Assembly (NCBI GenBank): GCA_002840535.1
Contig: PHBH01000024.1
Location: 3,261-67,260 of the forward strand
Direction: 5' to 3'
Length of the DNA stretch: 64,000 nucleotides
From: Deltaproteobacteria bacterium HGW-Deltaproteobacteria-15
GTDB lineage: Bacteria; Desulfobacterota; DSM-4660; Desulfatiglandales; HGW-15
The position numbers and the translations under genes are program-made. Numbering within the stretch: the stretch's first letter is position 1; every line of letters begins with the position of its first letter. Below are positions 1,509 to 30,178 of the stretch, one piece after another. The notes beneath the pieces are model-generated. The model did no database searches. It saw only the letters and a program-made list of their open reading frames with translations, and was not told the DNA's origin.

Positions 1509-2213
1509 GTGATAATGGCCAAACTCCAATATTCTGCAGAAGACGGTATTGCGTTGATCTCCATGGACGACGGCAAGGCGAATGCCATGAACTTTGACTT
1601 CTTCTCTGAGATGGGAGAGGCCCTTGACCGCGTCCAGAAAGAAGGTGTCAGGACGCTGATCATCACCGGCAGGCCGGGCTATTTTTCAGGTGGTCTGGAT
1701 GTCCGGCTGCTCACGTCCCTTCCGCCGCAGGAGGTAAACAGGCTCGCCGATACCTTCGCCCGAGCCATGCTGCGGGTTTTTTCCTTGCCCATCCCGACCA
1801 TTGCGGTCCTCAGCGGGCATGCCGTAGCGGGTGGCGCCATGCTGTCATTCGTGTGCGATCTCCGGTTTGTCGTTGAAGGTACTTACCGGATCCAGATGAA
1901 CGAGTCGGTGATCGGCATACCTTTGCCGACATGGATGCTGATGATAGGCCGCGCGGTGATCCCGGCCCAATGGCTGGCTGAAGCATTTCTGCAGGGCAGG
2001 GCTTACGTCCCGGATGAAGCTCTCGGAAGAGGACTTGTTCACGGCCTGATCGGGAAGGATGAAGATCCTATTGCAAATGCAAAAAGTAGAACAGAGCATC
2101 TCAAAAGCGTGAATCTCCAGGCCTACCAGACCGGCAAGGCCCGGCTGCGCGATGCCGATGTTCGACAGGTGCTGGAGCTTCTCAAAGGCGAGCTGCCGTT
2201 CAGCAGCTTGTGA
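1509..2213 (+). CDS. enoyl-CoA hydratase/isomerase (crotonase) family protein
   Basis: Crotonase-fold signature regions (ITGRPGYFSGGLDV, oxyanion-hole-like AVAGG) in the translation. Confidence 0.55.
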   Translation: MIMAKLQYSAEDGIALISMDDGKANAMNFDFFSEMGEALDRVQKEGVRTLIITGRPGYFSGGLDVRLLTSLPPQEVNRLADTFARAMLRVFSLPIPTIAVLSGHAVAGGAMLSFVCDLRFVVEGTYRIQMNESVIGIPLPTWMLMIGRAVIPAQWLAEAFLQGRAYVPDEALGRGLVHGLIGKDEDPIANAKSRTEHLKSVNLQAYQTGKARLRDADVRQVLELLKGELPFSSL

Positions 2214-2796
2214 AGAGGTCCTCCACCGCTTTCCTGTATTCGGTAAGGAGCATCTGAAAGCCTCGGTGCTCCGTATCCGCTGAAAGGCTTTCTGCAAGAG
2301 TGCGGTAATACCACTCCTGCTGTTCTTTTCCTCTTCTGAATCTGCCCCACACCCCATTGCCGATTTCTTTCATCGAACCCTCGATCGTTCTCACATTGTG
2401 CAGTTTGTCGGCACAGACCACCATTTTCACCTCGAGAGGGGCCGTCTTGACCGACTCCACCGTGTGACTCTTTCGCTCTTCCCAGGGGAGAGATCTGTCG
2501 GGTTCAGATGCGGATTCCACTATGGATGCCACCGTTTCTCCAAATTCGCGCCGGATATCCTCCAAGGTCACGGAGGTATCCTCCACCGTATCATGGAGGA
2601 TGCCGGCGATAATGACCTCTTCCGAACATCCTGCCCTTGCAAGGATGATCCCTACGGCAAAAGGATGGGTGATAAAGGGCAAATCCTCTGATTTCCGATT
2701 TTGATTTCGATGAGCCCTGGCAGCAACGTTGATCGCCCGGACGATCATCTCAGGAAGGATTTCGCGTATGACGGCTTCAGCCAAACTCTCCTCCAT
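2200..2796 (-). CDS. stand-alone HD-domain (p)ppGpp hydrolase-like protein (SpoT/RelA hydrolase domain, small alarmone hydrolase type)
   Basis: HP..VA..L...(D)...I.AGILHDTVEDT motif typical of the RelA/SpoT HD hydrolase domain. About 198 aa with no synthetase part. Confidence 0.6.
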   Translation of the reverse strand: MEESLAEAVIREILPEMIVRAINVAARAHRNQNRKSEDLPFITHPFAVGIILARAGCSEEVIIAGILHDTVEDTSVTLEDIRREFGETVASIVESASEPDRSLPWEERKSHTVESVKTAPLEVKMVVCADKLHNVRTIEGSMKEIGNGVWGRFRRGKEQQEWYYRTLAESLSADTEHRGFQMLLTEYRKAVEDLFTSC

Positions 2797-2843
2797 GATT
2801 TCGACGGATGCTCTTCCCTTTCGCCGGGCGGCTCAGGAGCCCG

Positions 2844-4034
2844 TTATATCTCCAGGATCTTCTTCGGCGTGCGATGCAGGCTCTCGCCCGGACCCTTTTC
2901 CGTGATCAGGTAGTTGTCGCAGGTCGTTGCCCAGATCCGATCGTCGACCACAAACGGGTGGACGGTCAGGTTCATGCCGGCCTGAATTTTCATCGGCTCG
3001 TCATCACGTATGGCCGGGCGTTCAACCAGGTCGTATCCCTGGCCATGGGCATAGAGACGCCTTTCAGGCTTGAACCCGTGGCGGGACAGGAACTCGTTAT
3101 TGGCATCCCAGACCGTCTTGGGATCCGTTCCCGGCCTGAGCAATTTGAGGCTGACTTCCTGCGCCTCCACTGAAAGCGCATACGCCTCCTGCAACTGCTG
3201 CGGGGCTTTGCCCAGGCAGAACATGCGGCCGATCTCCGTATAAAAACCGGCAGGTCCATTGGTTTCTATCAACACGGCTACGCGATCCCCTTTGCGGATC
3301 ATCCTGTTCTGAAAATGCCTGAACTGGTATCTGGCCGTGCTCTCGGGGGGCGCCGAGCTGACAAGGATCAACTGACGCTCGCTCCCGTTGCGCACAACCG
3401 AGTATTGGGCTTCAGCCAGCACCTCGAAGTCCCTCATGCCGGGCCTGATCGTCTTCCTGAGATGCTCCATGGCAGCGTCCTGAAGAGCGGCCGTTTTCCT
3501 GATCCACTCCTGCTCCTCCGGGCTCTTGATGACCTTGAACCGATCGATCTCTTCCGTGACGTCCACCCACTTGTGTCCAACCAATCGCTGGACAAGAAAA
3601 TCATGAAAGGGCGCTGGAATGAACGAAAGCCCGACAAAGCCGACAGTGGCGTTTTTCTTTTTCGACAGGACCCCCGCTGCGAGCTCTGCATCCATGGTGT
3701 TCGTATAATGGATGGATGGAAAATAGGGCGCCGCCAGCCGGCTCTTTACCCCGCGAACGGCAAACGGAGGCGGAAAGGGTTCTCCCGGCGGTTTGGGCCC
3801 GCATGTGATGGTGGTCATTTCGTCATCCACCGGGAAGATGACGGTATACGGATAACTGTGTCGTGCGGAGAAATCGGAAAACCATTTTACATAACCGCCC
3901 AGGAACTCTTCGTCGTTCCGCATGATCAGGAAATCGATGCCGCGCTCGCGCATCATCTCTCTGGCCGCCTTCCAGCGGCGCTCCAGTTCTTTTGTGGAAA
4001 TACAGGCAGTCAGCCTCTCCCTTGGATCTTCCAT
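2844..4034 (-). CDS. M24 family metallopeptidase (Xaa-Pro aminopeptidase / creatinase-like)
   Basis: Pita-bread fold motifs (HGxGxxxHE-like HGQGYDLVERP, creatinase N-domain). The start was set at the ATG at 4034, preceded by AGGAGGA; the upstream part of the ORF has no support. Confidence 0.7.
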   Translation of the reverse strand: MEDPRERLTACISTKELERRWKAAREMMRERGIDFLIMRNDEEFLGGYVKWFSDFSARHSYPYTVIFPVDDEMTTITCGPKPPGEPFPPPFAVRGVKSRLAAPYFPSIHYTNTMDAELAAGVLSKKKNATVGFVGLSFIPAPFHDFLVQRLVGHKWVDVTEEIDRFKVIKSPEEQEWIRKTAALQDAAMEHLRKTIRPGMRDFEVLAEAQYSVVRNGSERQLILVSSAPPESTARYQFRHFQNRMIRKGDRVAVLIETNGPAGFYTEIGRMFCLGKAPQQLQEAYALSVEAQEVSLKLLRPGTDPKTVWDANNEFLSRHGFKPERRLYAHGQGYDLVERPAIRDDEPMKIQAGMNLTVHPFVVDDRIWATTCDNYLITEKGPGESLHRTPKKILEI

Positions 4035-11103: not shown

Positions 11104-11180
11104 TTCCGGAAGAATATTGCATTCCATCTCTCAAAAGGGTATGAGGGCTTGTCTCTCTTTCTCAAGTAGTAACCTTAAGC

Positions 11181-13070
11181 ATGATCAAGAAACGAAACAT
11201 CCTTACTGTATTGGTTTTTGCCTGCTTTTTGCTTTTCTCCCGCAGCGTTTTGGCAGAAACCGTTGCCCTTCCGCTTTCCCTCGATTCTCAACTGCTCAGA
11301 TCCATGATCATCAAAGCCGCCTACACAGACGAGGGAAGGACTGCCGTTTTGGCCGGACATCGGGGGGGCTGCAAGTCCATTGTCCTCTCTGAGCCGAGAT
11401 ACGTCATCCGGGATAACAGCCTCGTCTTTGAAACGAGGGTCTTCATCCAGGCGGGATTCAGCATCGGCGAGACCTGTATCCTGCCCACCTCATGGGAAGG
11501 ATATGTTGCTCTCACCCAGGTTCCTGTCATAGACGACCGATGGGTCCTCTCTTTCAGGACGATCGAATCCGAGGTCTACAACCAGGACCATGAGCCTGCC
11601 CGTGTCATGGGTTTTTTCTGGAACTTGATCAAATCGCATGTCTTCGAATACCTGAGCCAGATCACGATCAATCTTGCTCCCCCTGTGGAAGACCTCCGGC
11701 TATTCACCAGGGACGTGTTTCCTGCAGCATTGCAGGAAAATGCCCGGAGAATCCTGGACAGCTTCAGGCCCGGAAAAGTGGAAACGCGTGAGGAGAGCAT
11801 CACAGTCGAAATCCTGGCGGAAGTCGGTCAAGAGGAGAGAGAAGGAAAATCCGACGAAGAGGTCCTCGAGCAGGAAGAGGTGGATAGATTCATTACCCTG
11901 TGGGAGACATGGGACGCGTATTTTGTGCAGATGATCACCGCTCTCCCGAGAGAAAAATTGAGTGCCGGTGAAAGGGAGCTTATCCTGGATGTGCTCCTTG
12001 ATGCCAGGCACGGCTTCGAGGATGAGCTTCTTGAGTCAGGAGGAAAAACCGATTTTGTCAGGAAGCAATTTATAGAGGCGTGGGGCCGCCTCTCGCCGAT
12101 TTTCAGAAAAAGGATGAGCGACGATCCTGCCCGGCCTGTTCTCGACTATCTTGCCTTTTTCACGGCCTCCGATGCCCTTGTTGCGCTGGACAAACTAGGG
12201 CCTGGGCTGGGAATCGAGATCAGCCGAAACGGCTTGATACATCTGGCCCGCCTCATCAGCAGCAAAGATATTACCGATCTTCCATACGCGTTTGTGGTGG
12301 ATGAGGATCTGAGGTCCATCCTTGGGCTTGGCGATCCACTTCCCCTTACCGAGCCTTCTTTTGACGGGGAATCCATCGAGATCGCCCCGGAAGAGTTCAA
12401 GCCCGAGGAAAAGGAGTGGCTCCTGCACGTGAAGGGTTTCTTCATCGCCACGGCCTGGGCCGGAACCGATCCAAAGCAAGCCTTCCGTGACCGTATTACC
12501 CCCTGGCTGGTCCCAAAAGGCGATGTCATGGCCTATCTCAATAGGGTCAAACTCCTCTTGAACGAAGCCTCAACCAAGGTTTTTTCCAAAACCGATCTGG
12601 ACAGGGGGCTCAGCGAGTTCTACAATCTCCTCGTTCTTTCCACCGCATGGCAGGAAACCTGCTTCCGACAATTCGTGATAGAGAGAGGCAAGGCGACGTA
12701 CCTGCGGTCGTATAACCACACGTCTGTAGGGATCATGCAGATCAACGAACGCGTGTGGCGAGGCATCTATGATCTGAACCACCTGCGCTGGGATATCGTA
12801 TACAACGCCACGGCCGGTTGCGAGATCCTCAGTTTATATCTGAAGAAATATGGTCTGCCGGATACAGAGAAGACAGGATCGGGAAAGCCGCCCGATCATG
12901 AGACCCTTGCCAGATCGGTCTATGCCGTGTACAGCGGGGGTCCGGGTCATTTGCGGAAATGGAAAGACGCTCTGGCCAAAGGACGGCCCGGCGTCATCGA
13001 CAAATTGTTCCTGGAAAAGTATCGATGGGTCTGCAGCAGCCAATGGGAACAAATAGGGGGATGTTTGTGA
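11181..13070 (+). CDS. secreted protein with C-terminal lytic transglycosylase (SLT) catalytic domain
   Basis: N-terminal signal peptide. C-terminal ...STAWQETCFRQF...SVGIMQIN... matches the SLT catalytic E-S / GLMQ region. Confidence 0.6.
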   Translation: MIKKRNILTVLVFACFLLFSRSVLAETVALPLSLDSQLLRSMIIKAAYTDEGRTAVLAGHRGGCKSIVLSEPRYVIRDNSLVFETRVFIQAGFSIGETCILPTSWEGYVALTQVPVIDDRWVLSFRTIESEVYNQDHEPARVMGFFWNLIKSHVFEYLSQITINLAPPVEDLRLFTRDVFPAALQENARRILDSFRPGKVETREESITVEILAEVGQEEREGKSDEEVLEQEEVDRFITLWETWDAYFVQMITALPREKLSAGERELILDVLLDARHGFEDELLESGGKTDFVRKQFIEAWGRLSPIFRKRMSDDPARPVLDYLAFFTASDALVALDKLGPGLGIEISRNGLIHLARLISSKDITDLPYAFVVDEDLRSILGLGDPLPLTEPSFDGESIEIAPEEFKPEEKEWLLHVKGFFIATAWAGTDPKQAFRDRITPWLVPKGDVMAYLNRVKLLLNEASTKVFSKTDLDRGLSEFYNLLVLSTAWQETCFRQFVIERGKATYLRSYNHTSVGIMQINERVWRGIYDLNHLRWDIVYNATAGCEILSLYLKKYGLPDTEKTGSGKPPDHETLARSVYAVYSGGPGHLRKWKDALAKGRPGVIDKLFLEKYRWVCSSQWEQIGGCL

Positions 13071-13109
13071 TCAGGATGAGATCATGAAAGAGAATTCGGA
13101 GATCTGGTG

Positions 13110-16100
13110 ATGAAGTGCCTTAAATGCGGATCCGAGAACCATGCGGAGGCAAAGTTGTGCGGAGAATGCGGGTCCGGCCTGGAGAGCCGTTGTCCAGGCT
13201 GCGGGAATGGTTATCCGGTTCATTTCAAGTTCTGCAGCGAATGTGGCCATAAGCTGCAGACATCCGCTGAATCCGCTTCGATCGATTATTCCCAACCTCA
13301 ATCTTATACCCCAAAGTTCCTTGCTGAAAAGATCCTGACCCAGCGCTCCTCCATCGAGGGTGAGCGGAAGGTCCTGACCGTCATGTTCACTGACGTGGCG
13401 AACTTCACGCCGCTCTCCGAGCGGGTCGGCCCCGAGGTCGTCCACCAGATCATGGACGGGTGCTTTCGCATTCTGCTTGAGGAAACCCATCGGTACGAAG
13501 GGACCATCAACCAGTTCACCGGCGACGGCGTCATGGCGCTCTTTGGTGCCCCGGTAGCCCACGAAGACCATGCTGTTAGGGCCTGCCATGCGGCCCTGGC
13601 CATCCAGAAGGCGCTCAAACCCTTCGGCGAGGATCTGAAGAGGAGGTACGGCGTGGATTTCAGGATGCGCGTCGGCCTCAACTCCGGGCCGGTCATAGTA
13701 GGGGCGATAGGAGACGACCTGCGGATGGACTACACGGCCGTGGGGGACACTACCAACCTGGCCGCACGCATGGAACAAATGGCCGAGCCCGGAAAGATCC
13801 TCCTCACGGCCAGCACCTGCCGGCTCGCGAGGGATTTCTTCGAATTTCAGGAGCTCGGAAAGAAGAAGGTCAAGGGGAAGCAGGAGGAACAGGAGATCTT
13901 CGAGCTCATCCGGGTCGGGGACTTCTCTTCCCGGCTCGACGCAGCCGCGGCCAGGGGGCTCACCCCCTTCATCGGCCGGGAGCAGGCTGTCGGGGAGCTG
14001 ATGAGGGGCTTCGAGAAGGTGCGGAGCGGCGCCGGCCAGGTGCTCGGGATTGTGGGGGAGGCGGGGGTCGGGAAGTCCAGGCTGCTCCTCGAATTCCGAG
14101 GCCGCCTCCCAATGGGGGAGTACTGCTACCTCGAAGGCCGATGCATCCGCTTCGGCCACGCCATGGCCTATCTTCCCATCCGGGAGATCGTCCGCTCCTA
14201 TTTCGGGATCGTGGAAGGCGAGCCCGACGGAACCCGCACGGAAAAGATTGCAGGTGGATTGTCAAGCCTGGACGAAGAGCTCCGGCCTTCCCTGATCCCT
14301 TTGCAGGAGCTGCTGGGCATCAAGGTTGAGGACCCCTCGTGGCTCGCCTTGGAGCCCCGAGAGAAGAGGGAAAGGATCTTCAGGTCCGCCGGGGACCTGC
14401 TTCAGGGGGAGAGCCGGTCGAGACCCTTGGTGATCGCGGTCGAGGACCTCCACTGGATCGACAAGAGCTCCGAGGAATTTCTGGACTACTTCATGGGCTA
14501 CCTCAAAGGCGTGAGGATCCTGCTCCTGCTCCTTTATAGGCCGGAATACCACCACGACTGGGGGAAGAACCCCTTCTTCCGGCGAGTCAGCACAGACCAG
14601 CTTCCCTCCGAGAGCGGCGCCGCACTAGTCAGCGCCCTCCTGAAGGGGGGGGAAGTCGTGCCCGAACTGGCCGACCTCATATACAGCCGCTCGGGCGGAA
14701 ATCCGCTCTTCATGGAAGAGCTCACCAGGACGCTCCTCGAAAGCGGCGCCGTCCGCCGGGTAGACCATCGCTACACCCTCGCAGACCGCTCTTTCGCCAA
14801 GCAGGTGCCGGAGACGGTCCAGGGGATCATCGCGGCCAGGATGGACCGGCTCTCCGACAGTCTCAAGGTGACTCTCCAGGCTGCCTCCGTTATCGGCCGG
14901 GAATTCGAGGTTGACCTCCTGGGCTGCGTTAACAGGCGCGGGCAGGAGCTGATATCGGGCCTCTCCGAGCTTCAGGGGCTTGAGTTCGTCCATATGAAGA
15001 GCGGTTCCCCGGAGCCGGCATACTTTTTCAAGCACGCGCTGACCCAGGAGGTGGCGTACAACAGCCTCCTGATCGCAAAGCGAAAGGAGATCCACCAGAG
15101 GATCGGGGATGCCATCGAGGAGCTCTACCCCAACAGGCTGGAGGAGTTCTACGAAGTGCTTGCCGCCCACTACTCCAAGGGGCAAAGCCTGGAAAAAGCC
15201 GCAAGGTACATAAGGCTTTCAGCTGAGAAGGCGTTGAAGAGCAATTCGCTCTGGGTGGCTCTTCGTCTTTACAAGGAGTTGCTCGCGCTGCTCGATCAGG
15301 AGCATGAGGCGGATGAGCGAAAAAAAGAGAAGATCGAAGTCCTTGTCTCCATGATCCCCATTCTGAGGGGTCTGGGATTTCCTGAAGATCCGGCCGACAT
15401 CCTCCAGGAGGGGGCACGACTCTGCAAAGGGGTTCAGGATAAACGGAGCATGGCCGTCATACATGCCTATGCGGCTATGGCCTTCACCTACAGGGGGGAC
15501 GCGGCGCTTGGAGTGGATTACCTGGAGCAGACCTATCTCAGGGCTGTAACATCACAAGAGTTTGATATCATTAAGGAAGTTGTAGTTGGCCTCATTCCGA
15601 ACTATGTCCTGCGCGGAGAATTCCGCAAGGTTGTGGATGTGGCCTCCAACGTTTTTCACCTATTCGAAAAAGCCCATCCTACGTCCAAGGACTTCGGCAT
15701 GCCCGTTGATCTTCATGTTACTCTCCTCCTCAACCGTGGATCCGCAATGGGATTCCTGGGGGATTTTGAACATGGCGAGGAAGAGTGCAGGAAGGCGGTC
15801 TCCATTTCCAGTAACATCGGCCGCGCTTTCAGCATCGGCGACGCGGAGCTTTCTTATGGAACCCTTCTGACCCAATGGGGAAGAACCGGCCAGGCGACAG
15901 CCCATCTCCAGAAAAGCATTGAGAATTACGAGAAATCCCAGGGGACCATCTGGCTGCCTACTGCTTGGAGCTACCTGGGGCTGGCCCACAGCTTTGAAGG
16001 CGATGGTTCCAGGGCGCTCGAGTGTCTGGAGAATGCATTGCGAATGCAGGTTGAGAGCGGCCTCCCCTCCCTTCTCTCCCTCCACCACTGCAACATGAGC

Positions 16101-16475
16101 TCAGTGCATCTGGAGTTGGGGGATTCTGATAAGGCGCTATTTCACGCAGGAGAAGCGATAAGACTCGCAGAGGCAAACGATGGGAAACATCACGAGGCGC
16201 TCTCTCTTATATACCTGGGATTGGCGGAATGGAGAATCCGGAGGATCCCGAATCAGGAAGCGGAAGAAAGGCTGGGAAAGGCGATCGAAAAGCTCAAGGG
16301 CCTTGGATTGAAACCGTGGGAGGCCCAGGGAAACCTCCACCTCGGTGCTCTCCTTGCCGAGTCAGGGGAGCCTGAGAAGGCCAGGCAAAGGATCGGAACT
16401 GCCGAAAGCATGTTTCTGGAGATGGGGATGGATCACTGGACCGCAAGGGCGCGGAGCGCCTTGAAACGAATCTAG
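13110..16475 (+). CDS. STAND-type signalling protein: double zinc-ribbon + class III adenylate/guanylate cyclase + P-loop NTPase (AAA_16/NB-ARC-like) + TPR array
   Basis: CxxC x4 N-terminus; cyclase motifs (FTDVANFT, FTGDGVMALFGAP); Walker A GEAGVGKS; long C-terminal TPR-like repeats. Confidence 0.8.
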   Translation: MKCLKCGSENHAEAKLCGECGSGLESRCPGCGNGYPVHFKFCSECGHKLQTSAESASIDYSQPQSYTPKFLAEKILTQRSSIEGERKVLTVMFTDVANFTPLSERVGPEVVHQIMDGCFRILLEETHRYEGTINQFTGDGVMALFGAPVAHEDHAVRACHAALAIQKALKPFGEDLKRRYGVDFRMRVGLNSGPVIVGAIGDDLRMDYTAVGDTTNLAARMEQMAEPGKILLTASTCRLARDFFEFQELGKKKVKGKQEEQEIFELIRVGDFSSRLDAAAARGLTPFIGREQAVGELMRGFEKVRSGAGQVLGIVGEAGVGKSRLLLEFRGRLPMGEYCYLEGRCIRFGHAMAYLPIREIVRSYFGIVEGEPDGTRTEKIAGGLSSLDEELRPSLIPLQELLGIKVEDPSWLALEPREKRERIFRSAGDLLQGESRSRPLVIAVEDLHWIDKSSEEFLDYFMGYLKGVRILLLLLYRPEYHHDWGKNPFFRRVSTDQLPSESGAALVSALLKGGEVVPELADLIYSRSGGNPLFMEELTRTLLESGAVRRVDHRYTLADRSFAKQVPETVQGIIAARMDRLSDSLKVTLQAASVIGREFEVDLLGCVNRRGQELISGLSELQGLEFVHMKSGSPEPAYFFKHALTQEVAYNSLLIAKRKEIHQRIGDAIEELYPNRLEEFYEVLAAHYSKGQSLEKAARYIRLSAEKALKSNSLWVALRLYKELLALLDQEHEADERKKEKIEVLVSMIPILRGLGFPEDPADILQEGARLCKGVQDKRSMAVIHAYAAMAFTYRGDAALGVDYLEQTYLRAVTSQEFDIIKEVVVGLIPNYVLRGEFRKVVDVASNVFHLFEKAHPTSKDFGMPVDLHVTLLLNRGSAMGFLGDFEHGEEECRKAVSISSNIGRAFSIGDAELSYGTLLTQWGRTGQATAHLQKSIENYEKSQGTIWLPTAWSYLGLAHSFEGDGSRALECLENALRMQVESGLPSLLSLHHCNMSSVHLELGDSDKALFHAGEAIRLAEANDGKHHEALSLIYLGLAEWRIRRIPNQEAEERLGKAIEKLKGLGLKPWEAQGNLHLGALLAESGEPEKARQRIGTAESMFLEMGMDHWTARARSALKRI

Positions 16476-20478: not shown

Positions 20479-20895
20479 ATGGTTGTGATGGTCATGGACG
20501 GGCAGGGAGGCGGCATCGGCGCAGTCATCATCAAGAGTCTGCGGGAACAGCTGACTCGGGATTATGAAATCCTTGCGCTCGGTACCAATTCTTCAGCCAC
20601 CGCCAGAATGATGAAAGCAGGGGCCAATCGTGGGGCCACAGGGGAGAACGCCATTGTTCGGGCAAGCCTGTGCGCAAATATCATCGTCGGACCCCTGGCC
20701 ATAATCATGCCCAATTCCATGATGGGGGAAGTGACCACTCCGATGGCGGAGGCGGTCAGCTCCTGTGAAGCCAGGAAAATCCTGATACCCCTCTCACAGG
20801 AAAAGGTAACGCTTGCCGGTTTTACCGGAGAGCCCCTGCCTCACCTGGTAAATCACGCAGTACAACGAGTTAAGGAGTTGATAAACGATGTGTGA
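20479..20895 (+). CDS. DUF3842-like protein
   Basis: N-terminal DGQGGGIG motif as recalled for DUF3842. Alternative start at the ATG at 20488. Confidence 0.45.
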   Translation: MVVMVMDGQGGGIGAVIIKSLREQLTRDYEILALGTNSSATARMMKAGANRGATGENAIVRASLCANIIVGPLAIIMPNSMMGEVTTPMAEAVSSCEARKILIPLSQEKVTLAGFTGEPLPHLVNHAVQRVKELINDV

Positions 20896-21076
20896 AGCAG
20901 CCGCTTTTTTACTGAAGGATCAAAAAGAGGAACTCCTCCTGGAGTCCGTGGAAGTGATCGAGACAGGAGAAAACGATGTAACCCTCGTCAACATCTTCGG
21001 TGAACGGAAGGTCATCAGGGCGAAGATCAAGTCGTTCTCTCTGGTTGATCATAAAATCGTGCTTGAACCCATGTGA
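20888..21076 (+). CDS. CooT-family putative nickel-binding protein (Met-Cys N-terminus)
   Basis: 62 aa beginning with MC; hydrophobic beta pattern similar to CooT. AAGGAG SD 9 nt upstream. Overlaps the previous gene. Confidence 0.45.
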   Translation: MCEAAAFLLKDQKEELLLESVEVIETGENDVTLVNIFGERKVIRAKIKSFSLVDHKIVLEPM

Positions 21077-21576: not shown

Positions 21577-22200
21577 ATGAGTTTATTTGGCAGAATGATA
21601 ACTGTGATCTTCTTCAGCGCCGCCCTCTTTGCCGCGAGCGGCCGGCCCTGTCTTCCTCAAGAGAGTAACGTCCGCGCCAAAATCGGGATTCTCGTCAAGT
21701 CAGGTGACCAGATCGTCCGGGCCAGATCCATGGACCGCGTGAAGGCCGGAGACCTCATTCGCATTTACGTGCATCCTGAAGCCAGCTCCTATGTTTATGT
21801 GATCCACACCGACCAGAAGCGGGTCACCATGCTCAACATGGTGGAGCAGAAGATCCATAGCTCTACACTGGTGCTCCCTTCCCTGCAGGAATTCTACCAG
21901 GTGGACGGGAACAGCAAAGTGGAGAGCTTTACCGTCATCTGCAGTTCTGAAGAGGTCAAGGAGGTGTCGAGTCTCCTCACTTCCCAGATGGATCACGAGA
22001 AATGGACGTCACTCCAAAAGGATCTGGTCAAGAAGGGGGAGATCGACCTGGGGCAACAGACCGAGCGGCCTTTTGGGATTGCCGGGAACGTCCGTGGCAC
22101 TGCCGACGCCGGCGGCGATCCTTTTGTCAAAGAGCTACAGATCTTCTCCGGGAAAAAAGTTCTCGTGAAACAATATGAGTTTAGCGTTAAGAAGCAGTAA
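21577..22200 (+). CDS. secreted hypothetical protein (possibly DUF4384/FecR-like)
   Basis: Signal peptide. AAAGGAG SD upstream of the ATG at 21577. Precedes and overlaps the CHASE2 cyclase gene. Confidence 0.45.
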   Translation: MSLFGRMITVIFFSAALFAASGRPCLPQESNVRAKIGILVKSGDQIVRARSMDRVKAGDLIRIYVHPEASSYVYVIHTDQKRVTMLNMVEQKIHSSTLVLPSLQEFYQVDGNSKVESFTVICSSEEVKEVSSLLTSQMDHEKWTSLQKDLVKKGEIDLGQQTERPFGIAGNVRGTADAGGDPFVKELQIFSGKKVLVKQYEFSVKKQ

Positions 22201-24367
22201 ACTGCTGACTTTCATAGGCATCGCCGGAGCAGGGATCCTGGCCGCCGCCACTCTTCTTCTCTCTGCCCGGGGTACTGTGTGGACCCAGTACGATTACAAG
22301 GTTCTGGATCTTTACTACCGCGCTGCCGTTGCGAGCGGGCGCGGGCCCGCCCAATCGCCCCGGATCGTCATCACGACGATCACCGATAAGACCTATGACT
22401 ACTTTCAAAAGAACACCCTCGATCGCAGCGATCTTGCAGAGGTCAATGACGCTCTCGCTCGCCTGGGCGCGGAGGCGCTTGGCTATGATGTGATCTTTGC
22501 CCGTGCAAGCAACGAGCAGTCCGACACAAGATTCGCAGAATCCATACGAAAACATGGGGCCGTCTATCTTCCCATAGGACTTGCGTTCTCCGACCAGCCC
22601 AGGTCTTTTCGATGGGAGGAAGGCAGGGCATACGAGAGATTCCGTTCAGATTTTCTGCGAAGACCGGTCGAGCGGGGGGAAGCCAATCCCTACCATGCCA
22701 CGCGAGCACTCATGCAGTACGACCTCTTCTCCGAAGAGGCTTTCAACTCGGGGCATATCAGCGCCTACAGCGACCCCGATGGGGTGTACCGGCACCTTCT
22801 CATGCTTCTCAAGGTGGATGAGGAATACTTTCCCACCATAACCCTTTCCATATTTCTGGATCATGTTGGGATACCCTTTGAAAAGGTGCTGGTGGAATGG
22901 GGGAAGAGGATCGTCATTCCTGCGTCCAAAGAAGGCTTCCTGGAAAAGGACCTGATCATTCCCATCGACGAAAGAGGCCGCGCCGTCATCCCCTATCCCG
23001 CCGCGTGGGATCGCGCGTTCAAGAAGATGGAGGCCAATGCCCTCCTGAACTATCTGAAGGACGAGAACCTGCAAGGAAACCTCGCAGATTTCTTTGAGGG
23101 GAAGTTTGTTCTGATCGGAGATATCTCCATAGGAACAGCGGACCTCGGACATACGCCCCTTGAAGGTGATGCCCCTCTGGTTCTCCTCCATGCAGCCATG
23201 CTGAACGGCATGCTCACAAATACCTTTTTCTCAAAGTGGTCGCTTATGGAAGCGATAGTGGTCCTCTGGGGGATGTCCATTCTTCTCGGCCTTTCCGCAG
23301 CCATAAGGTCTTCATGGACCCTCTACGCAACAGGCGGTGCAGTGGCAGTTTTCCTCGCAGGGTTCACGTGGACGGAATTCATCGGGTTTCAGCTTTTCCC
23401 TGTTGCCACGGTCGGCGGAAGCGTGCTCCTCGTTTTTCTGGGTCTCCTGGCCACGCTCGAATTGGCAGTGGGGAAGGAGCGATCCTTCATCAAAAAAGCG
23501 TTTTCGAGATATTTGCCTGGAAAGGTCGTCGACACGCTCCTCTCCAACCCGGAATTGCTGAAGCTTGGCGGCGAAGAAAGAGTGATGTCCGTGCTTTTCT
23601 CAGACCTGGCAGGCTTCACATCAATCTCGGAACGCATGGCGCCCTCTCAGCTGGTCCGCCTCTTGAATGAGTATCTGACGAATATGACGGATATCGTGCT
23701 TGCGGAAGGAGGAATCATCGACAAGTTCGAAGGGGATGCCATCATGGCGGAATTCGGCGCACCTCTGCCCATGGACGATCATGCGGACAGGGCTGTGAGG
23801 GCCGGCCTCCTGATGCAGAACCGCCTCAGAGAGCTTCGAAGTGTCTGGGCGGCCCGGGGGCTTCCGGAGTTGAAGTGCCGCGTGGGCATCAATACGGGAA
23901 CCATGATCGTCGGGAACATGGGCTCCGACCAGGTCTTTGATTACACGGTGATCGGGGATTCGGTGAACCTCGCCTCCAGGCTGGAAGGGGCGAACAAAAG
24001 ATATGACACCGCGCTGATGATCTCCGAAGCCACGTTTACCAGCCTTACGCCCGGCCTTTTCAGGACGAGGGTTCTGGATCTGATCAAGGTCAAAGGAAAA
24101 TCCAGGGCCGTGAAAGTTTTCGAGGTTCTGGGCGAAAACAGTCTCGCTTTGAAACCGAATGAGGAGCTCTATTACCAGGCGTATGAGGAGGCATTCGCAG
24201 CATACCTGTCCCGGGATTTTCATCCTGCACGTGCCAAGTTCCAGAAGGCGCTCTCCTTGAGACCGAATGACCCTGCTGCAAAGGACATGCTTGAGCGTAT
24301 CGAAAACCTCGACCCCGACACCCTCCCCCCCGACTGGGATGGATCCATCTCTCTTACCAGTAAATAG
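22175..24367 (+). CDS. CHASE2 sensor domain + class III adenylate/guanylate cyclase
   Basis: N-terminal TM, periplasmic CHASE2-like region, 3 TM helices, then cyclase motifs (LFSDLAGFT, FEGDAIMAEFGAP). Confidence 0.8.
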   Translation: MSLALRSSKLLTFIGIAGAGILAAATLLLSARGTVWTQYDYKVLDLYYRAAVASGRGPAQSPRIVITTITDKTYDYFQKNTLDRSDLAEVNDALARLGAEALGYDVIFARASNEQSDTRFAESIRKHGAVYLPIGLAFSDQPRSFRWEEGRAYERFRSDFLRRPVERGEANPYHATRALMQYDLFSEEAFNSGHISAYSDPDGVYRHLLMLLKVDEEYFPTITLSIFLDHVGIPFEKVLVEWGKRIVIPASKEGFLEKDLIIPIDERGRAVIPYPAAWDRAFKKMEANALLNYLKDENLQGNLADFFEGKFVLIGDISIGTADLGHTPLEGDAPLVLLHAAMLNGMLTNTFFSKWSLMEAIVVLWGMSILLGLSAAIRSSWTLYATGGAVAVFLAGFTWTEFIGFQLFPVATVGGSVLLVFLGLLATLELAVGKERSFIKKAFSRYLPGKVVDTLLSNPELLKLGGEERVMSVLFSDLAGFTSISERMAPSQLVRLLNEYLTNMTDIVLAEGGIIDKFEGDAIMAEFGAPLPMDDHADRAVRAGLLMQNRLRELRSVWAARGLPELKCRVGINTGTMIVGNMGSDQVFDYTVIGDSVNLASRLEGANKRYDTALMISEATFTSLTPGLFRTRVLDLIKVKGKSRAVKVFEVLGENSLALKPNEELYYQAYEEAFAAYLSRDFHPARAKFQKALSLRPNDPAAKDMLERIENLDPDTLPPDWDGSISLTSK

Positions 24368-24523
24368 CTGAAGGCCCCCGCCTCAACAAGTCGGCATGTC
24401 AAAAGTTCATTAACGAGCCTTCTCCATTCAGAGTTCATTGATGGCTTCGTAAAAAGTCTCTCTTCTTGTCGCACACTTTTTGAGCATTACGCCCGAAATG
24501 ACAGGTACGCTCAACTGACTTTT

Positions 24524-24681
24524 TACGAGAGTGTCAATGTGGACAAACTCGTTAAAAGTCGTCATTCCGGCGAAGGCCGGAATCCAGATATCTGCAAGGG
24601 CCCGAAAATACTGGATCCCGGCCTTCGCCGGGATGACGAAAAAGGGTATTTTCGACTTCTTACGAGACCGGCAATGTTGGA
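24524..24681. repeat. twin GC-hairpin element: hairpin 1 (24563-24585) and hairpin 2 (24614-24639) are reverse complements of each other with one compensatory base-pair change. Flanked by 22-bp imperfect direct repeats (ttacgagaNNNNcaatgt.ggac).
   Basis: tcattccggcgaaggccggaatcc versus gatcccggccttcgccgggatgac. Direct repeats at 24524-24545 and 24659-24681. Confidence 0.6.
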
Positions 24682-24709
24682 CGTTCGACGTTCACCCTGT
24701 CTTGATTCT

Positions 24710-25129
24710 CTATTTCTTCGGCCCTTCCTCCGCTTCCTCGTAGACATTGCAGATGCAGCACAGGAACTGGCCCGGTTCATTGCCCATGTTTCTCATTCCA
24801 TGCGGTTCCATGCTTGGGATAAAGACCGATGTGCCCGGGCCGCAGACTCTCTTTTCTTTAGGTTCATCTGTATGCGGGTCGAAAGACCGGCACTCAAATT
24901 GCCCTGACAGTATGTACATGGTCTGGTGATAGAAGTGATTGTGTATAGGGATTTGTCCGTCGGGCTGAATCGTGAAAAGACGCAAACCATATTCAGGATA
25001 GCCATTTCCGTCGTCGCCATACTTCGAAAGCCACCTTACGCTGGTCCCTTTCACCTCCAGCATTTGACCCTTGTAGGGAAACTTGTCGATCTTCTTGTCC
25101 TCGCATTCTTTCCAGTTCAACACTTCCAT
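24710..25129 (-). CDS. cupin domain protein
   Basis: Cupin motifs with His-rich metal-site-like residues (HNHFYHQ..., PHGMRN). Confidence 0.6.
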   Translation of the reverse strand: MEVLNWKECEDKKIDKFPYKGQMLEVKGTSVRWLSKYGDDGNGYPEYGLRLFTIQPDGQIPIHNHFYHQTMYILSGQFECRSFDPHTDEPKEKRVCGPGTSVFIPSMEPHGMRNMGNEPGQFLCCICNVYEEAEEGPKK

Positions 25130-25155
25130 TCTGTCCTCCGGGTGTATTTTGTGAA

Positions 25156-26652
25156 TTATCTTTTTCCGATAAAGAACAGGAACTCGCCTTCCCCTTCCAG
25201 TCTGCCGTAGAGGGGGGTTTGGGCCTGGTTGGAGGCTTCCGAGACTACCGGTCTGATGTAGGCGCCAAGCTCCGTTCCGGTAACCACACCGTCCTTGTCA
25301 ATGTCCGCCTCACCGTCCAGGGCCTTGAGCAGAAATCCCGTGAAGAGACCCTGTCCCCCCTTCTCCTGGGCCTGCTCCCCGCTGCCTCCTGCAGTGACGA
25401 TCTGAACGGCCCTCATAGATGCCACCTTCCGAAGGAATCCTGAAACAGCCTGCGAGGTCCCGATGGATCTGGAAAGCCCGAGTCCCGAATAGCAGGAATC
25501 CATCACAAAGAGGATATGCTTTGCCCGGATTCTGCTCGACAGGCTTCGCACCTGTTCCATCGAAATGGAGGTGCTTGCATACGCAGCCGTATCCCCGTCA
25601 ACCGGGATGATGTACCCCTTCTTCGCCCCTCCCTCGACATCCTCGGTCTGGCCATGGCCTGCAAAGTAAAAAAGGACCCGATCATTGGGACCGACTTTTC
25701 CGGGAAGGGTGTGGAAAAGCTCGGTGAGGATTCTCCCCTGCGTCGCCTGCTTGTCCAGGACCAGAGTGATCTCCTGGAAGCCGGTTTCCCTGAGCCTTTT
25801 CTCCACGTCTTTCGCGTCCTTAACGGCGAACTCCAGGGGCGGCCATTTCTCATATTGGTCAATCCCGATGATCACTGCAAACGACTTCCCATAGAAATCG
25901 GCAGGACCCGTTCCCGTTAGAGGAAGCTGGGTTCCCGCCCTTTCGAAGGTGATCGATTGAGTGGATCGGTTTCCAAGCCGGTCGGATGCCTCCACCACAA
26001 TAGTGTTGGTTCCGGCCTGGACGGAAATGTCCCTGATAAAATGGCCGGAGTCCTCCAGCGAAGCTTCCTGCTGGTTGACCCTGACCCAAGCAACACCGCT
26101 CTTGTCGGTCGCAATGCCGCGAACACTCAGGTTTTCATGCGTCAGCACCATGCTCAGGCCCCGGGTTCCTGCAGGTTCGAGCATGATGAGCCTGGGTCCG
26201 TCCCGATCCATAACCGCTTCGATCTTCCCCTTGAGCTCCAGTGCCTCTTTGTAATCCTTCTGTATGGACAAGGACTTCATCACATGCCTGTGCGCCTCAT
26301 CATGCTCGTTCCTTTCAAAGAGAAGTGACGCAAGGAGATGGTAGAGTTTGTAATTGTTGCTTCCGAGCTCTGCCGCCTTGGTGAAGGCGGCAATGGCCGT
26401 ATCTTTCTTGCCCTCATTACGATAGAGGTTGCCAAGGATCTCATAGCTTCGAATGTAGCCGGGACAGCTCTCGATGGCATCGAGGCAGAGCTGGACAGCT
26501 TTTGTTTTGTCTTTTGCAAAACGGGCCTTTGCCGTGAGATGCGGCGCCCGCTCGCAACCTTCTTCAGCCTGAAGGGCGGGGTTTCCCAGAAAAAGCGCCG
26601 GCAGAAAAATTGAAAGGAATGCACATGCACGAGCGTTCTTTGATTGTCCCAT
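25156..26652 (-). CDS. secreted TPR + caspase-family (peptidase C14, orthocaspase) protein
   Basis: Signal peptide, N-terminal TPRs, and a caspase His/Cys dyad context (YFAGHGQ ... FVMDSCYSG). Confidence 0.75.
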   Translation of the reverse strand: MGQSKNARACAFLSIFLPALFLGNPALQAEEGCERAPHLTAKARFAKDKTKAVQLCLDAIESCPGYIRSYEILGNLYRNEGKKDTAIAAFTKAAELGSNNYKLYHLLASLLFERNEHDEAHRHVMKSLSIQKDYKEALELKGKIEAVMDRDGPRLIMLEPAGTRGLSMVLTHENLSVRGIATDKSGVAWVRVNQQEASLEDSGHFIRDISVQAGTNTIVVEASDRLGNRSTQSITFERAGTQLPLTGTGPADFYGKSFAVIIGIDQYEKWPPLEFAVKDAKDVEKRLRETGFQEITLVLDKQATQGRILTELFHTLPGKVGPNDRVLFYFAGHGQTEDVEGGAKKGYIIPVDGDTAAYASTSISMEQVRSLSSRIRAKHILFVMDSCYSGLGLSRSIGTSQAVSGFLRKVASMRAVQIVTAGGSGEQAQEKGGQGLFTGFLLKALDGEADIDKDGVVTGTELGAYIRPVVSEASNQAQTPLYGRLEGEGEFLFFIGKR

Positions 26653-26667
26653 TCATTGACCTCGAGC

Positions 26668-27456
26668 TCAGATTTCTTGTTCGATAATCGCGTCCGCCGA
26701 ATTGATGATGAAATTATCGAATACCACAATAAATGGAGAACCTGCTCCAATCTCCTTCCGTCTTGGAGCGAAATTCTGCGCCCTGAGCGTGACAAGGACT
26801 TCATTCGCCTGTTGAACGAATCGGCCCAACTCTTTCCATTCGCTCTCCCCCTTTTTCCTGAACATGGTCGTCGCCCTGATTCCTTTTCTGGAGATCCTGA
26901 GACTCCCATCGAAATCGTCGACTTCCCGTCTAACAGGCCGGTGGATCCGGCCTTTCTGGCGATAAAAGGCAACTAATTGGGGATTTGCCTGGCCCAGTTT
27001 GAAAATATTGATGTTGATGCTCTCAATCTCAGTATCGCTCAGCTCCTTGCTCATGTCCCGGAGATTGAAGGACAGGAGCTGATCCATATCCCGGGCGCTC
27101 TTTACAAACTCCACCTTGCAGTCCACCTGGATGTCGAAGTCGCCCTTTAGCGCGAAATTCGACCCAACCCCGCCAGCGCTGTAGCAACCGGTTCTTGTTT
27201 CGATCCTCAGCTGTCCATCCTTCACCCTCATGTCGGCCAATTTGAAGTTCTCCCCTATAATCTCCTCCTGCGGTATGTATCCGGCAACATTCCAGAGATC
27301 TTCCCTGAATTTGTCGAAGGTATCGCTGTAGCGGGAGAGTTCACTGGGGCTCAACCCTTTTTCGACTTTAGGGGCAGGGCTGCCCGTGACGCATGAGGAA
27401 AAGATGAAGAGACCGCCAATGAATCCAAGGAGTAAGCAGCACGATCGAGTCTTCAT
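26668..27456 (-). CDS. hypothetical lipoprotein
   Basis: Lipobox LFIFSSC after the start at 27456, which has an AAAGGAG SD. Immediately upstream of the caspase gene. Confidence 0.5.
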   Translation of the reverse strand: MKTRSCCLLLGFIGGLFIFSSCVTGSPAPKVEKGLSPSELSRYSDTFDKFREDLWNVAGYIPQEEIIGENFKLADMRVKDGQLRIETRTGCYSAGGVGSNFALKGDFDIQVDCKVEFVKSARDMDQLLSFNLRDMSKELSDTEIESININIFKLGQANPQLVAFYRQKGRIHRPVRREVDDFDGSLRISRKGIRATTMFRKKGESEWKELGRFVQQANEVLVTLRAQNFAPRRKEIGAGSPFIVVFDNFIINSADAIIEQEI

Positions 27457-27602: not shown

Positions 27603-28448
27603 CTAACGCCTGTGCGCTTGCTCTCCTTTGATCAGATCCGGGATCCGGAGGTACTCGTCCCCCTCCTCGACCCTGCCCCTTTTGATACAGCCCCTTCCGT
27701 AGATGCCGCACTTGAGAGCCAGTTCCTCGAACACGGCATTAAGCTGGTGATCTTTTAGCGTGCCGCTCCGGATCAGCTTCACCATCGCTCTGATCCTGTA
27801 CTGATCGAGTCCCTCTACGGTCGCGGAGAGCTGGTCCGAAGAACCGCCTTCCTTGATAAGCAGCGCCGAGCTGATGAGGTGAATCGGATAACGGCAGGAG
27901 ATCCTGAGCCAGAGATCATAGTCCTCGCAGGCTGGAAGGGATTCGTCAAACATCCCCACCTCCTCCAGGACCTGCCGCCTGAGCATCACGGCCGACGGGC
28001 TCACAAGGCAGAGTTTCAAAGAAGGTTCAAAGATTATCCCCGAGGGCTTCGCGTGTTTTCTCATGGGATTCACGCGTCTTCCCCTGCGCAACCAGATCTC
28101 CTCGGTCTGGCAGGCAACCGCATCGGGATGCAATCGAAAGAAGTCGACCTGCGTTGTCAATTTATCGGGCAGCCAATGGTCGTCGGAATCAAGAAATGCA
28201 ATGAGGGAAGAGTGCGAGGCCAGGATCCCGGTGTTCCTCGCAGCGGAAACGCCCCTGTTTTCCCCATGAAAAAGGACCTGTATGCGCGGGCCGAAGTGTT
28301 GGAGGACCTCTCGCGTCCGGTCTCTTGAGCCGTCGTCCACCACGATGATTTCATAATCCCGGAAGCTCTGGTCAAGCACCGAGCCGACAGCCCTGGCGAC
28401 CTTGGCGGCTCGGTTATAAGTTGGGATGATGACGCTGACCGCTGTCAT
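27603..28448 (-). CDS. family 2 glycosyltransferase
   Basis: GT2 motifs (VSVIIPTYN, DDGSRD, DSDD). The start ATG overlaps the stop of the upstream IspH-fusion gene (ATGA). Confidence 0.75.
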   Translation of the reverse strand: MTAVSVIIPTYNRAAKVARAVGSVLDQSFRDYEIIVVDDGSRDRTREVLQHFGPRIQVLFHGENRGVSAARNTGILASHSSLIAFLDSDDHWLPDKLTTQVDFFRLHPDAVACQTEEIWLRRGRRVNPMRKHAKPSGIIFEPSLKLCLVSPSAVMLRRQVLEEVGMFDESLPACEDYDLWLRISCRYPIHLISSALLIKEGGSSDQLSATVEGLDQYRIRAMVKLIRSGTLKDHQLNAVFEELALKCGIYGRGCIKRGRVEEGDEYLRIPDLIKGEQAHRR

Positions 28449-30178
28449 GAGAGGCTGTGCGAGATCAGGGCCAGGAACCCTGCGAGAAAGAGATTCCCCT
28501 CCAGCATGGCTTCGAGCCGCATACCCGGGTACAGCCACCTTCTTTCATAGGCGAGAATTGTAAGCCTCAAGCCTATAAAGCAGCATACAAGAAGATACGA
28601 AACCGAACCTATCGGAACGGCCAACGGCGCAAAGATCAGCAGCAGGACGCCCGCGAGGATGATTCCCTTCAGAAGATAGAGGGCTTTCTTTTCGCCGATT
28701 ACAATGGGAAGAGTCTCCCTTCCCACGATCATATCCCCCTGGAGCTCGAAAATTTCAAAGAGTCCGCCCCTCACATAGACGAGGGCAAAAACGAAGAAGA
28801 AGGAGACCAGTGCAGGACTCCATGCAACTTCCCGTTGCTCCAGCAGGGGCAAAAGGCCCATGAGAGCGGCCCATGCAAGGGCCTGGGAGAGGGTTTTGGA
28901 ACCCGGGATATCCTTGATCTTCGAAAACTGCCACATTTGCCGCAGCCCCTTGGGCACAATGGGGATGCTGTAGATCATGCCGAGCAGGCTCAGCCCCGCC
29001 GTTCCAAAAAGGACGGCATCGCCCAGATCATTGGAAAGGATGAGGGCGGCGGCCATCGCTCCCACCCCGGTTAGAAACAGGGCCGTTTTGTGTTTCCTGT
29101 AGAAGTTCGCCCTTTCCGGATCATTGTATGCACTTGCACCCTTGTCCAGAAAGCGATTGAGGACATACATCGCGTAAATATAGAAGAACGCAAGGGTGGG
29201 GTGCACGAGATCGGGGACTCTCCCCGCCAGGATCATGGACGCACAGGTAAGGGAAAAGGCGCCAAGCGAAACCATGACGTTTCCGAGAAAAAGAAGCTTC
29301 AGCGAGCGACTGACCAGTCGGTGAAGCCGCGATTCCCTCGGACTGCGGATGGACTCGATCCGTTGCACGACACTACGGATCATCCAATTGGGGGTCGATG
29401 CTCCGGCCGTCACGCCGATGACCTCCATATTCGAGAGTCTGTCCTTGTTGAGCTCTTCCTCGGTTTCCACATGAAAGGCGGGTATTCCGGCTTCCTGGGC
29501 AACCTGGACAAGGCGTCGGGTGTTTCCGCTGTGAAACCCCCCCACCACAACGAGCCCATCAACCTGGGGAGCCAGGGATTTCACTTCCTCCTGGCGGCTG
29601 GTAGTGGCATCGCAGATGGTTTCATGGACCTGCGCGTGAGGGTACCTTCTCCGGATGGCATCCACTACTTCCTTATACTTGTCCACATCCTGGGTAGTCT
29701 GGGCGACGACGACGAGCCTCTCCATGTCCGGCAGTTCGCTCACCTGGCTGCTCTCCTCGATAACGTGCACGCGCCCGTTCCCGTACCCGACCAGACCGAT
29801 GACCTCCGGATGGCTGGACTCACCGACGATCACGGCGCGATATCCCTTGCCGGTGTGATACCGGATAATAGACTGCACATGGGCCACATGGGGGCAGGTC
29901 GCATCGATGATCCGCATTCCTGAAGCTTTGAGGATCTTTCGCTGCTGGGGCGGGATACCGTGCGCCCGAATGATGAGGGTGCCCTCTTTTAAATCGGAAT
30001 CGCTTTCGATAACACCGACGCCCTTGGATTCCAGCAGGTCCATGACCTGCTTGTTATGGATCACGGGACCAAAGGTGAATATGGGACCCTTGCTCCTGTT
30101 CGTCTCCAGGAGCACGATCTCGATTGCCCTGCGAACACCCATGCAGAAACCTGCAGTCTTGGCAAGCTTCACCTTCAA
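28445..30178 (-). CDS. ispH: IspH/LytB (HMBPP reductase) fused to a C-terminal approximately 290-aa polytopic membrane domain
   Basis: N-terminal 275 aa carry IspH hallmarks (GFCMGVRRAI, ATCPHV, conserved Cys x3). Continuous ORF into 8 or so TM helices. TTG start overlapping the dus stop (TTGA). Confidence 0.7.
   Translation of the reverse strand: MKVKLAKTAGFCMGVRRAIEIVLLETNRSKGPIFTFGPVIHNKQVMDLLESKGVGVIESDSDLKEGTLIIRAHGIPPQQRKILKASGMRIIDATCPHVAHVQSIIRYHTGKGYRAVIVGESSHPEVIGLVGYGNGRVHVIEESSQVSELPDMERLVVVAQTTQDVDKYKEVVDAIRRRYPHAQVHETICDATTSRQEEVKSLAPQVDGLVVVGGFHSGNTRRLVQVAQEAGIPAFHVETEEELNKDRLSNMEVIGVTAGASTPNWMIRSVVQRIESIRSPRESRLHRLVSRSLKLLFLGNVMVSLGAFSLTCASMILAGRVPDLVHPTLAFFYIYAMYVLNRFLDKGASAYNDPERANFYRKHKTALFLTGVGAMAAALILSNDLGDAVLFGTAGLSLLGMIYSIPIVPKGLRQMWQFSKIKDIPGSKTLSQALAWAALMGLLPLLEQREVAWSPALVSFFFVFALVYVRGGLFEIFELQGDMIVGRETLPIVIGEKKALYLLKGIILAGVLLLIFAPLAVPIGSVSYLLVCCFIGLRLTILAYERRWLYPGMRLEAMLEGNLFLAGFLALISHSLS

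Follow-up and report, generated by a model that had tools for sequence, protein, structure and literature searches.

The 64,000-nucleotide (nt) stretch of contig PHBH01000024.1 that was analysed here, which we call the window and whose positions serve as coordinates throughout, carries five open reading frames (ORFs) between 21.5 and 27.5 kilobases (kb), two on the plus strand and three on the minus strand, and this locus probably represents a previously undescribed envelope signalling system working via protein cleavage. All five ORFs that an earlier, sequence-only reading of the same DNA had placed here are present at the coordinates it gave. The plus-strand arm consists of a small exported protein, p212, and a receptor cyclase with a CHASE2 sensor domain, the genes of which overlap by 26 nt. 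The minus-strand arm encodes a lipoprotein, an exported caspase homologue and a cupin, with gaps of 15 nt between the lipoprotein and caspase genes and 26 nt between the caspase and cupin genes. Loci and proteins other than those of the window are referred to by the labels of this analysis, L or P followed by a number. The features are as follows (aa, amino acids; +, plus strand; -, minus strand).

21562/21577-22200, +: p212, small secreted DUF4384-type immunoglobulin-like (Ig-like) protein, 207/212 aa
22069-22098, +: p212 loop motif PFGIAGNVRG, with the codon of R178 at 22093-22095, checked by translation
22175-24367, +: CHASE2 receptor class III nucleotide cyclase, 730 aa, assigned with Pfam
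about 22250-23290, +: CHASE2 domain of the 730-aa protein
about 23585-24109, +: cyclase domain of the 730-aa protein
24368-24709, no strand: spacer between the convergent genes, 342 nt, with a twin hairpin at 24559-24639 within an insertion of about 310 nt
24710-25129, -: Cupin_2 protein, 139 aa, assigned with Pfam
25156-26652, -: secreted TPR-Ig-like-Peptidase_C14 protease (orthocaspase-type), 498 aa, assigned with Pfam
25654-25656 and 25492-25494, -: catalytic codons of the caspase, His333 and Cys387 respectively, checked by translation
26668-27456/27510, -: lipoprotein with a concanavalin-A-like (GH16-like) jelly-roll domain, 262/280 aa

The exported caspase, the CHASE2 cyclase and their partners

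The 498-aa protein had been described from its letters as a signal-bearing TPR protein with a caspase-type His/Cys dyad, and this description holds. Pfam places Peptidase_C14 (PF00656) at residues 257-480 (E=2.4e-16, 60.6 bits against a cut-off of 21.4), together with TPR repeats and an Ig-like Glucodextran_B domain (E=8.6e-10). The motifs YFAGHGQ (H333) and MDSCYSG (C387) are both present, their catalytic residues being invariant in 27 homologues, and a signal-like segment lies at residues 9-27. Indeed, simple hydropathy analysis finds a single N-terminal hydrophobic segment in each of the caspase, p212 and the lipoprotein. A pair of Cys residues in the TPR region of the caspase, C33 and C63, is likewise invariant across 27 aligned homologues and could form a disulfide, in line with export of the protein. 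The database search yielded hundreds of full-length homologues with identities of 58-77%, and those with a named source are mostly from metagenome-assembled genomes of Desulfobacterota.

The lipoprotein has a conserved Cys after its signal sequence, and its domain has the jelly-roll features of the concanavalin-A-like lectin/glucanase fold (DUF1583_C, DUF1349, GH16-like). On its own it matches DUF1583_C faintly (E=0.083); 18 of 31 homologues match this family. An active GH16 glycosidase was considered and rejected, as the catalytic ExDxxE (ExDxE) motif is absent both by inspection and among the conserved columns; the conserved acidic cluster of the protein is GDFDIQVDC. From these sequence features we read the lipoprotein as a putative lectin-like anchor or partner and not as an enzyme. 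Tandem duplicates of its gene occur at L013, L018 and L022. The sequence of the window lipoprotein matches a protein of 'Deltaproteobacteria bacterium HGW-Deltaproteobacteria-15', probably the source of the DNA, with 100% identity.

The CHASE2-sensor cyclase that had been proposed for the second plus-strand gene was borne out. The 730-aa product matches CHASE2 (PF05226) in Pfam over residues 26-372 (E=7.7e-34, 117.8 bits against a cut-off of 26.3) and Guanylate_cyc (PF00211) with E=4.4e-23 and 82.3 bits. Hydropathy peaks at residues 10-28, 359-377 and 407-425 bracket the CHASE2 domain, as is the case for an outward-facing sensor; the hydropathy window method is a simple one, and a fourth helix likely lies between residues 378 and 406. 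In class III cyclases a pair of Asp residues binds metal, and Asn and Arg residues act on the transition state. The corresponding motifs are FSD (D477), GDA (D521) and VNLASR (N598, R602), alongside K517 and T591. Since adenylate cyclases, among them 3r5g and 1wc1, are the closest relatives of solved structure and the Lys517/Thr591 pair is present, the cyclase domain probably makes cyclic AMP (cAMP).

The p212 ORF opens at 21562, and Met6, at 21577, is the Met conserved in the family. This protein had been called both DUF4384-like and FecR-like. The former label is sound at the level of the family: the match of the window protein itself to DUF4384 (PF14326) is faint (E=0.053, 14.1 bits, cut-off 27), 20 of 32 homologues match at E<=0.1 (best 2e-5), and the distant p212-like proteins of caspase operons, which the p212 family profile detects at 1e-9 to 1e-12, exceed the Pfam cut-off (for example, 45.7 bits at L013). 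The latter label has to be dropped, FecR (PF04773) being absent at E<=10 from the window protein and at E<=0.1 from the 32 homologues, and the fold of p212 being, according to a predicted model, an Ig-like beta-sandwich. A profile search of 1.84 billion representatives detected 377 family members, nearly all of them stand-alone proteins of about 200 aa, and a profile search of PDB sequences gave no meaningful solved relative (best E=0.13), MtxA of Magnetospirillum (see below) included.

The p212 family has a loop with the nearly invariant consensus PF.I(A/G)GNVRG, which corresponds to residues 170-179 in the window. All 32 aligned homologues keep P170, F171, G175, V177 and R178, and among further sequences beyond this alignment the Arg is replaced once, by His. 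An extended form, E(R/K)P(F/I)xI(A/G)GN(V/L)RG, is the best-conserved feature common to p212 subfamilies whose overall identity is only about 25%. The loop lies inside a low-confidence segment of the p212 model (residues 163-184) and is probably flexible and exposed. The GNVRG loop is a candidate either for receptor contact or for cleavage by an orthocaspase specific for Arg/Lys.

Recurrence of the gene set in other genomes

A scan for the caspase with one genome per species gave 79 loci, of which 36 encode full-length TPR-Ig-C14 orthologues; profiles made iteratively from the window proteins served to annotate the neighbouring ORFs. At 32 of the 34 orthologous loci with enough upstream sequence, the lipoprotein gene either immediately precedes the caspase gene or is fused to it. 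The fusion, found at L005, L011 and L015, joins the lipoprotein domain to the N-terminus of the caspase in three homologues of 737 aa (P0024, P0080 and P0104) and ties the two proteins together. On the other side of the caspase gene, the next gene on the same strand is p212-like at 12 of 30 loci, with one more case on a truncated contig, and a CHASE2 cyclase gene comes within 1.5 kb at 12 of 24 loci, DUF4384 and CHASE2 plus Guanylate_cyc being confirmed by Pfam in example loci. This four-gene arrangement is spread over several caspase sub-clades with 70-94% domain identity. When all ORFs neighbouring the caspase loci were clustered, no other family recurred in more than seven loci, and p212 is absent from 43 control loci that encode other C14 architectures.

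The association is also seen from the side of p212, for which 82 loci were assembled from a metagenome scan (80 loci) and look-ups of individual homologues. A CHASE2 gene comes directly after p212 at 51 of the 66 loci with downstream sequence, usually with an overlap of about 20 nt. Genes for clan-CD proteases, of either the C14 or the CHAT type, are present at 23 of the 82 loci, and among the 16 loci with flanks of 3 kb or more upstream and 5.5 kb or more downstream, nine have such a gene within about 4.2 kb. These proteases show at least six architectures (TPR-Ig-C14, Ig-C14, C14 alone, C14-PEGA-FGE-sulfatase, WD40-C14 and TPR-CHAT, the last five all confirmed by Pfam beside p212), and their genes are located upstream, downstream or divergent relative to p212. 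All 13 protease neighbours that could be read with a complete N-terminus carry a signal peptide or lipobox. Because the linkage persists while gene order, strand and protease family change, it points to a functional connection rather than to inherited synteny. Thus the idea of a coherent module, as opposed to a chance neighbourhood, is strengthened by the same families recurring in other orders, orientations and protease architectures. The two outcomes that the sequence-only reading had named as speaking against it, a neighbourhood without conservation and C14 or CHASE2 assignments that domain searches fail to confirm, were both looked for and neither was found.

Some loci depart from the common arrangements. 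At L098 (4283-9601, minus strand) the gene for a CHASE2-SpoIIE receptor (a PP2C phosphatase) is followed by one for a TPR-CHAT protease, divergent from a p212 and CHASE2 pair, which suggests that the protease link reaches CHASE2 receptors with other outputs. At L118 (5245-9357) genes for a secreted C14 protease, a papain-like Peptidase_C1 plus DUF4384 protein, p212 and a CHASE2 protein stand in a row, the sensor pair being preceded by two different cysteine proteases. L017 (12536-16544, minus strand, and 1-2977, plus strand) has a lipoprotein-caspase pair with a p212 and CHASE2 cyclase pair 7 kb upstream, and also a second cluster on the other strand that encodes two C14 lipoproteins and a 284-aa DUF4384 protein. 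At L003 a different DUF4384 protein is encoded after the caspase. At p212 loci that have no CHASE2 gene downstream there follows a gene for a protein of about 960 aa, which is pyruvate phosphate dikinase-like by eye only and is not informative.

Within the lineage of the window, full synteny, including the convergent arms and the cupin gene, is seen in L083, whose p212 and caspase share 98% and 97% identity with those of the window, and in L080, whose caspase shares 77%. The cupin had been counted as part of the module. Its product is confirmed as Cupin_2 by Pfam (E=3e-13), hydropathy reveals neither an export signal nor a hydrophobic N-terminus, and among 162 loci homologues are found only in L080 and L083, being absent from the other 36 orthologous caspase loci. 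Its confinement to the closest relatives and its lack of an export signal led us to reject it as a module member; on this evidence it is a lineage-specific passenger, predicted to be cytoplasmic and outside the conserved module.

The twin hairpin noticed between the two gene arms is real: its own arms, each of 29 nt (24559-24587 and 24611-24639), show 93% complementarity, and its fold has a z-score of -7.3. It does not, however, belong to the system as had been supposed. According to alignments the insertion of about 310 nt that contains it is strain-specific, being absent from both L083 and L080, where the spacers measure about 30 and 96 nt, and its absence from a relative as close as L083 argues that the hairpin is not part of the system. 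Since, in addition, Rfam returned no family at gathering score for the hairpin spacer (the weak matches are microRNA models far below threshold), a regulatory role of the hairpin in the module was rejected. Short arm-like copies at unrelated sites (L118 4775-4802 and L080 19798-19858) suggest a dispersed repeat, and the insertion may be a small element of this kind or one resembling a miniature inverted-repeat transposable element (MITE). The ORFs listed within it, such as 24531-24743, are probably spurious. Scans of the locus for promoters and terminators were uninformative, with counts near the shuffled expectation and one arm of the inserted hairpin as the top terminator-like match.

As for the surroundings of the locus, a DUF3842-CooT pair (20479-21076) lies upstream of p212, is syntenic with ParAB and PlsY in every close relative, L080, L081, L083 and L163, and accompanies the p212 and cyclase genes even at loci without the caspase arm. 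A second cyclase locus of the window (11145-16472) encodes a 641-aa protein (11145-13067) with a signal-like N-terminus and no Pfam match, and, immediately after it, an 1131-aa protein (13080-16472) that combines double zinc ribbon, Guanylate_cyc, AAA_16 and TPR domains; a similar large cyclase occurs in L080. Finally, a 577-aa ORF (28445-30178, minus strand) joins LytB/IspH (E=4e-94) to a UbiA prenyltransferase domain, and the same fusion was called in L080.

Possible protease control of a CHASE2 receptor

What could the recurrent linkage of these genes mean? It is appealing to propose protease-controlled CHASE2 signalling in the cell envelope with four conserved parts, namely the lipoprotein, the caspase, p212 and the CHASE2 cyclase, and we put this forward tentatively, as a reading that falls a little short of being probable. 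Since the p212 and cyclase genes overlap, p212 is likely made together with the receptor, and in the periplasm it would act as a partner or pro-ligand of the CHASE2 receptor. The lipoprotein would hold the protease complex at a membrane, and the complex could recognise its target or trigger via the repeat domains. The protease may then, in physical contact with p212, alter the state of the latter, most likely by a cut in the exposed GNVRG loop after the Arg (GNVR/G), and the altered p212 would switch the CHASE2 receptor and its cyclic-nucleotide output, so that regulation would presumably run from protease to p212 to cyclase. The genomic linkage is a matter of observation; the proteolytic step is one that we infer. 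A narrower version, in which secreted clan-CD proteases of the caspase or CHAT type, equipped with recognition domains that differ from one to the next, are extracytoplasmic sensor proteases that cleave the pro-ligand p212 specifically at GNVR/G and thereby gate CHASE2, strikes us as possible and on the doubtful side. Cleavage after Arg or Lys is described for orthocaspases (PMC6426788), and we have assumed the same Arg/Lys specificity for the caspase of the window by analogy with these published properties.

Several points weigh against this proposal. The Arg specificity of this particular caspase is an assumption carried over from orthocaspases, and the GNVRG motif follows the linkage to CHASE2: the caspase-adjacent DUF4384 proteins of L003, L017 and L118 that have no CHASE2 gene downstream also lack the motif, which may thus serve for contact with the receptor and not for cleavage. 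No clan-CD protease is encoded near p212 at seven of the 16 long loci, and one caspase clade has neither p212 nor a cyclase nearby, unrelated genes standing downstream instead. The two arms of the window converge and are not co-transcribed, and its p212/cyclase pair, with only about 25-30% identity to its counterpart in caspase operons elsewhere, belongs to a different subfamily. L081 and L163 keep the series ParAB-PlsY-DUF3842-CooT-p212-cyclase and have no caspase within 10 kb. The link between these proteins is, moreover, a genomic one. The general association of caspase, p212 and CHASE2 is therefore strong, while the coupling of the two arms of the window itself is less certain.

It is conceivable that two independent systems often happen to lie side by side, p212 and CHASE2 forming a sensor and the lipoprotein and caspase forming an envelope protease that would process, for example, matrix, surface proteins or glycoconjugates. 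Adjacency would then reflect the clustering of envelope genes or rearrangement, with no shared pathway. The tightest links are indeed those within the pairs (the 32 of 34 and 51 of 66 loci given above), those between the pairs being found in only about half of the loci, and the convergent arms of the window, the sensor pairs of L081 and L163 that lack a caspase and the caspase clade that lacks a sensor pair all fit such a separation. However, the pairs recur together although gene order and strand differ and although the protease has one of at least six unrelated architectures, which drift or synteny does not explain. No other gene family is recurrent in these neighbourhoods, and p212 is never present at loci with other C14 architectures. 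We think this explanation unlikely. We give similarly little credence to the idea that the protease makes the signal, in which case the caspase would cut an external or cell-surface protein captured by the lectin-like lipoprotein and the TPR, Ig or WD40 domains, and p212, like a periplasmic binding protein, would present the resulting peptide to CHASE2. The CHASE2 cyclases of Sinorhizobium meliloti do respond to a proteinaceous signal (PMC13001267), the proteases come with differing domains (TPR, WD40, PEGA-FGE-sulfatase, Ig), which is what target recognition would lead one to expect, and a GNVRG loop that follows CHASE2 linkage fits a motif for receptor contact. Yet the generic Ig-like model of p212 has no evident ligand pocket, nothing points to an external substrate, and an invariant Arg in a flexible loop fits an Arg/Lys-specific cleavage site equally well.

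Many bacterial caspase homologues have been proposed to serve programmed cell death or anti-phage defence, and the cyclase of the window might by the same logic make an alarm nucleotide. PADLOC gives domain-level matches for the caspase (4e-18) and for a Pycsar-type cyclase (1e-24), but these reflect shared folds only, and a defence-system identity was rejected on this ground. An exported protease, as indicated by its signal peptide and conserved Cys pair, cannot reach cytoplasmic targets, and the NCBIfam model of EACC1-associated caspases (NF047832) scores the protein at 73.6 bits, below its cut-off of 140. Nor is there a recurrent defence-type neighbour, and the location of the locus among housekeeping genes that are syntenic in relatives also counts against defence. 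We consider such a function highly improbable.

Comparison with known systems

The caspase-p212-CHASE2 set is built from known parts. Metacaspase-CHASE2 fusions, such as that of Trichodesmium erythraeum or the EACC2-caspase-CHASE2 proteins (PMC3501461, PMC8195603), likewise tie a caspase-type domain to CHASE2, but they do so in one polypeptide whose caspase is predicted to be cytoplasmic and whose CHASE2 domain is outside. Here, by contrast, the genes are separate, the caspase is exported to the compartment of the CHASE2 domain, a DUF4384 protein stands between the two and the output is a cyclase. As in the window, a small exported protein is encoded immediately before the CHASE2 receptor in Burkholderia, where a LysM-FecR protein precedes a CHASE2 histidine kinase (PMC5192318), and in Magnetospirillum, where MtxA, with Ig-like and TPR-like domains, precedes a CHASE2 adenylate cyclase (PMC4439547). 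The mtxA operon shares with the window both an Ig-like domain in the exported protein and a cyclase as the receptor; deletion of mtxA had no phenotype (PMC4439547). However, p212 has no Pfam FecR match, its family profile detects neither MtxA nor any other solved chain, and no protease partner has been reported for either operon.

In S. meliloti the CHASE2 class III cyclases CyaD1, CyaD2 and CyaK make cAMP upon an extracytoplasmic protein signal that is conveyed through the outer-membrane protein NsrA, and these only CHASE2 cyclases with a known input thus respond to a protein signal (PMC13001267). The use of an accessory envelope protein is common to both cases, but NsrA is a beta-barrel outer-membrane protein rather than an Ig-like periplasmic one, and no protease is implicated. 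A parallel to the proposed proteolytic step is provided by type III-E CRISPR systems: DUF4384, which is often fused to proteases, is the C-terminal domain of some Csx30 proteins, which are cleaved by the CHAT-type protease Csx29 (bioRxiv 10.1101/2022.08.17.504292). There, too, a clan-CD protease is paired with a DUF4384 partner that is cleaved to release a regulator; however, Csx29-Csx30 is cytoplasmic, RNA-guided and part of a sigma-factor pathway, whereas the system of the window is extracytoplasmic and features a receptor cyclase.

No description of a gene set uniting an exported caspase or CHAT protease, a DUF4384 protein and a CHASE2 cyclase was found in the literature searched, the coverage of which is incomplete. 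CHASE2 is a widespread bacterial sensor domain whose detected inputs are largely obscure, those characterised being protein signals in one rhizobium, and bacterial caspase homologues are numerous, with discussion of them centred mostly on cell death or defence and very few substrates known. The recurrent link described here offers a concrete three-protein hypothesis for both problems, comprising an exported caspase or CHAT protease, a DUF4384 protein whose exposed loop has an invariant Arg and a CHASE2 cyclase, and it suggests a reason why DUF4384 is so often attached to proteases. The logic proposed here, by which a small secreted protein is converted by an exported protease and in turn governs a receptor in the membrane, is that of the Spaetzle/Toll pathway; the resemblance lies in the proposed mechanism only and implies no homology. 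Should the narrower version of the proposal, with cleavage at GNVR/G, be true, CHASE2 would gain a first general mechanism of input, bacterial caspases would have a role in signalling that involves no cell death, and bacteria would possess their own equivalent of relays from protease to receptor like Spaetzle/Toll.

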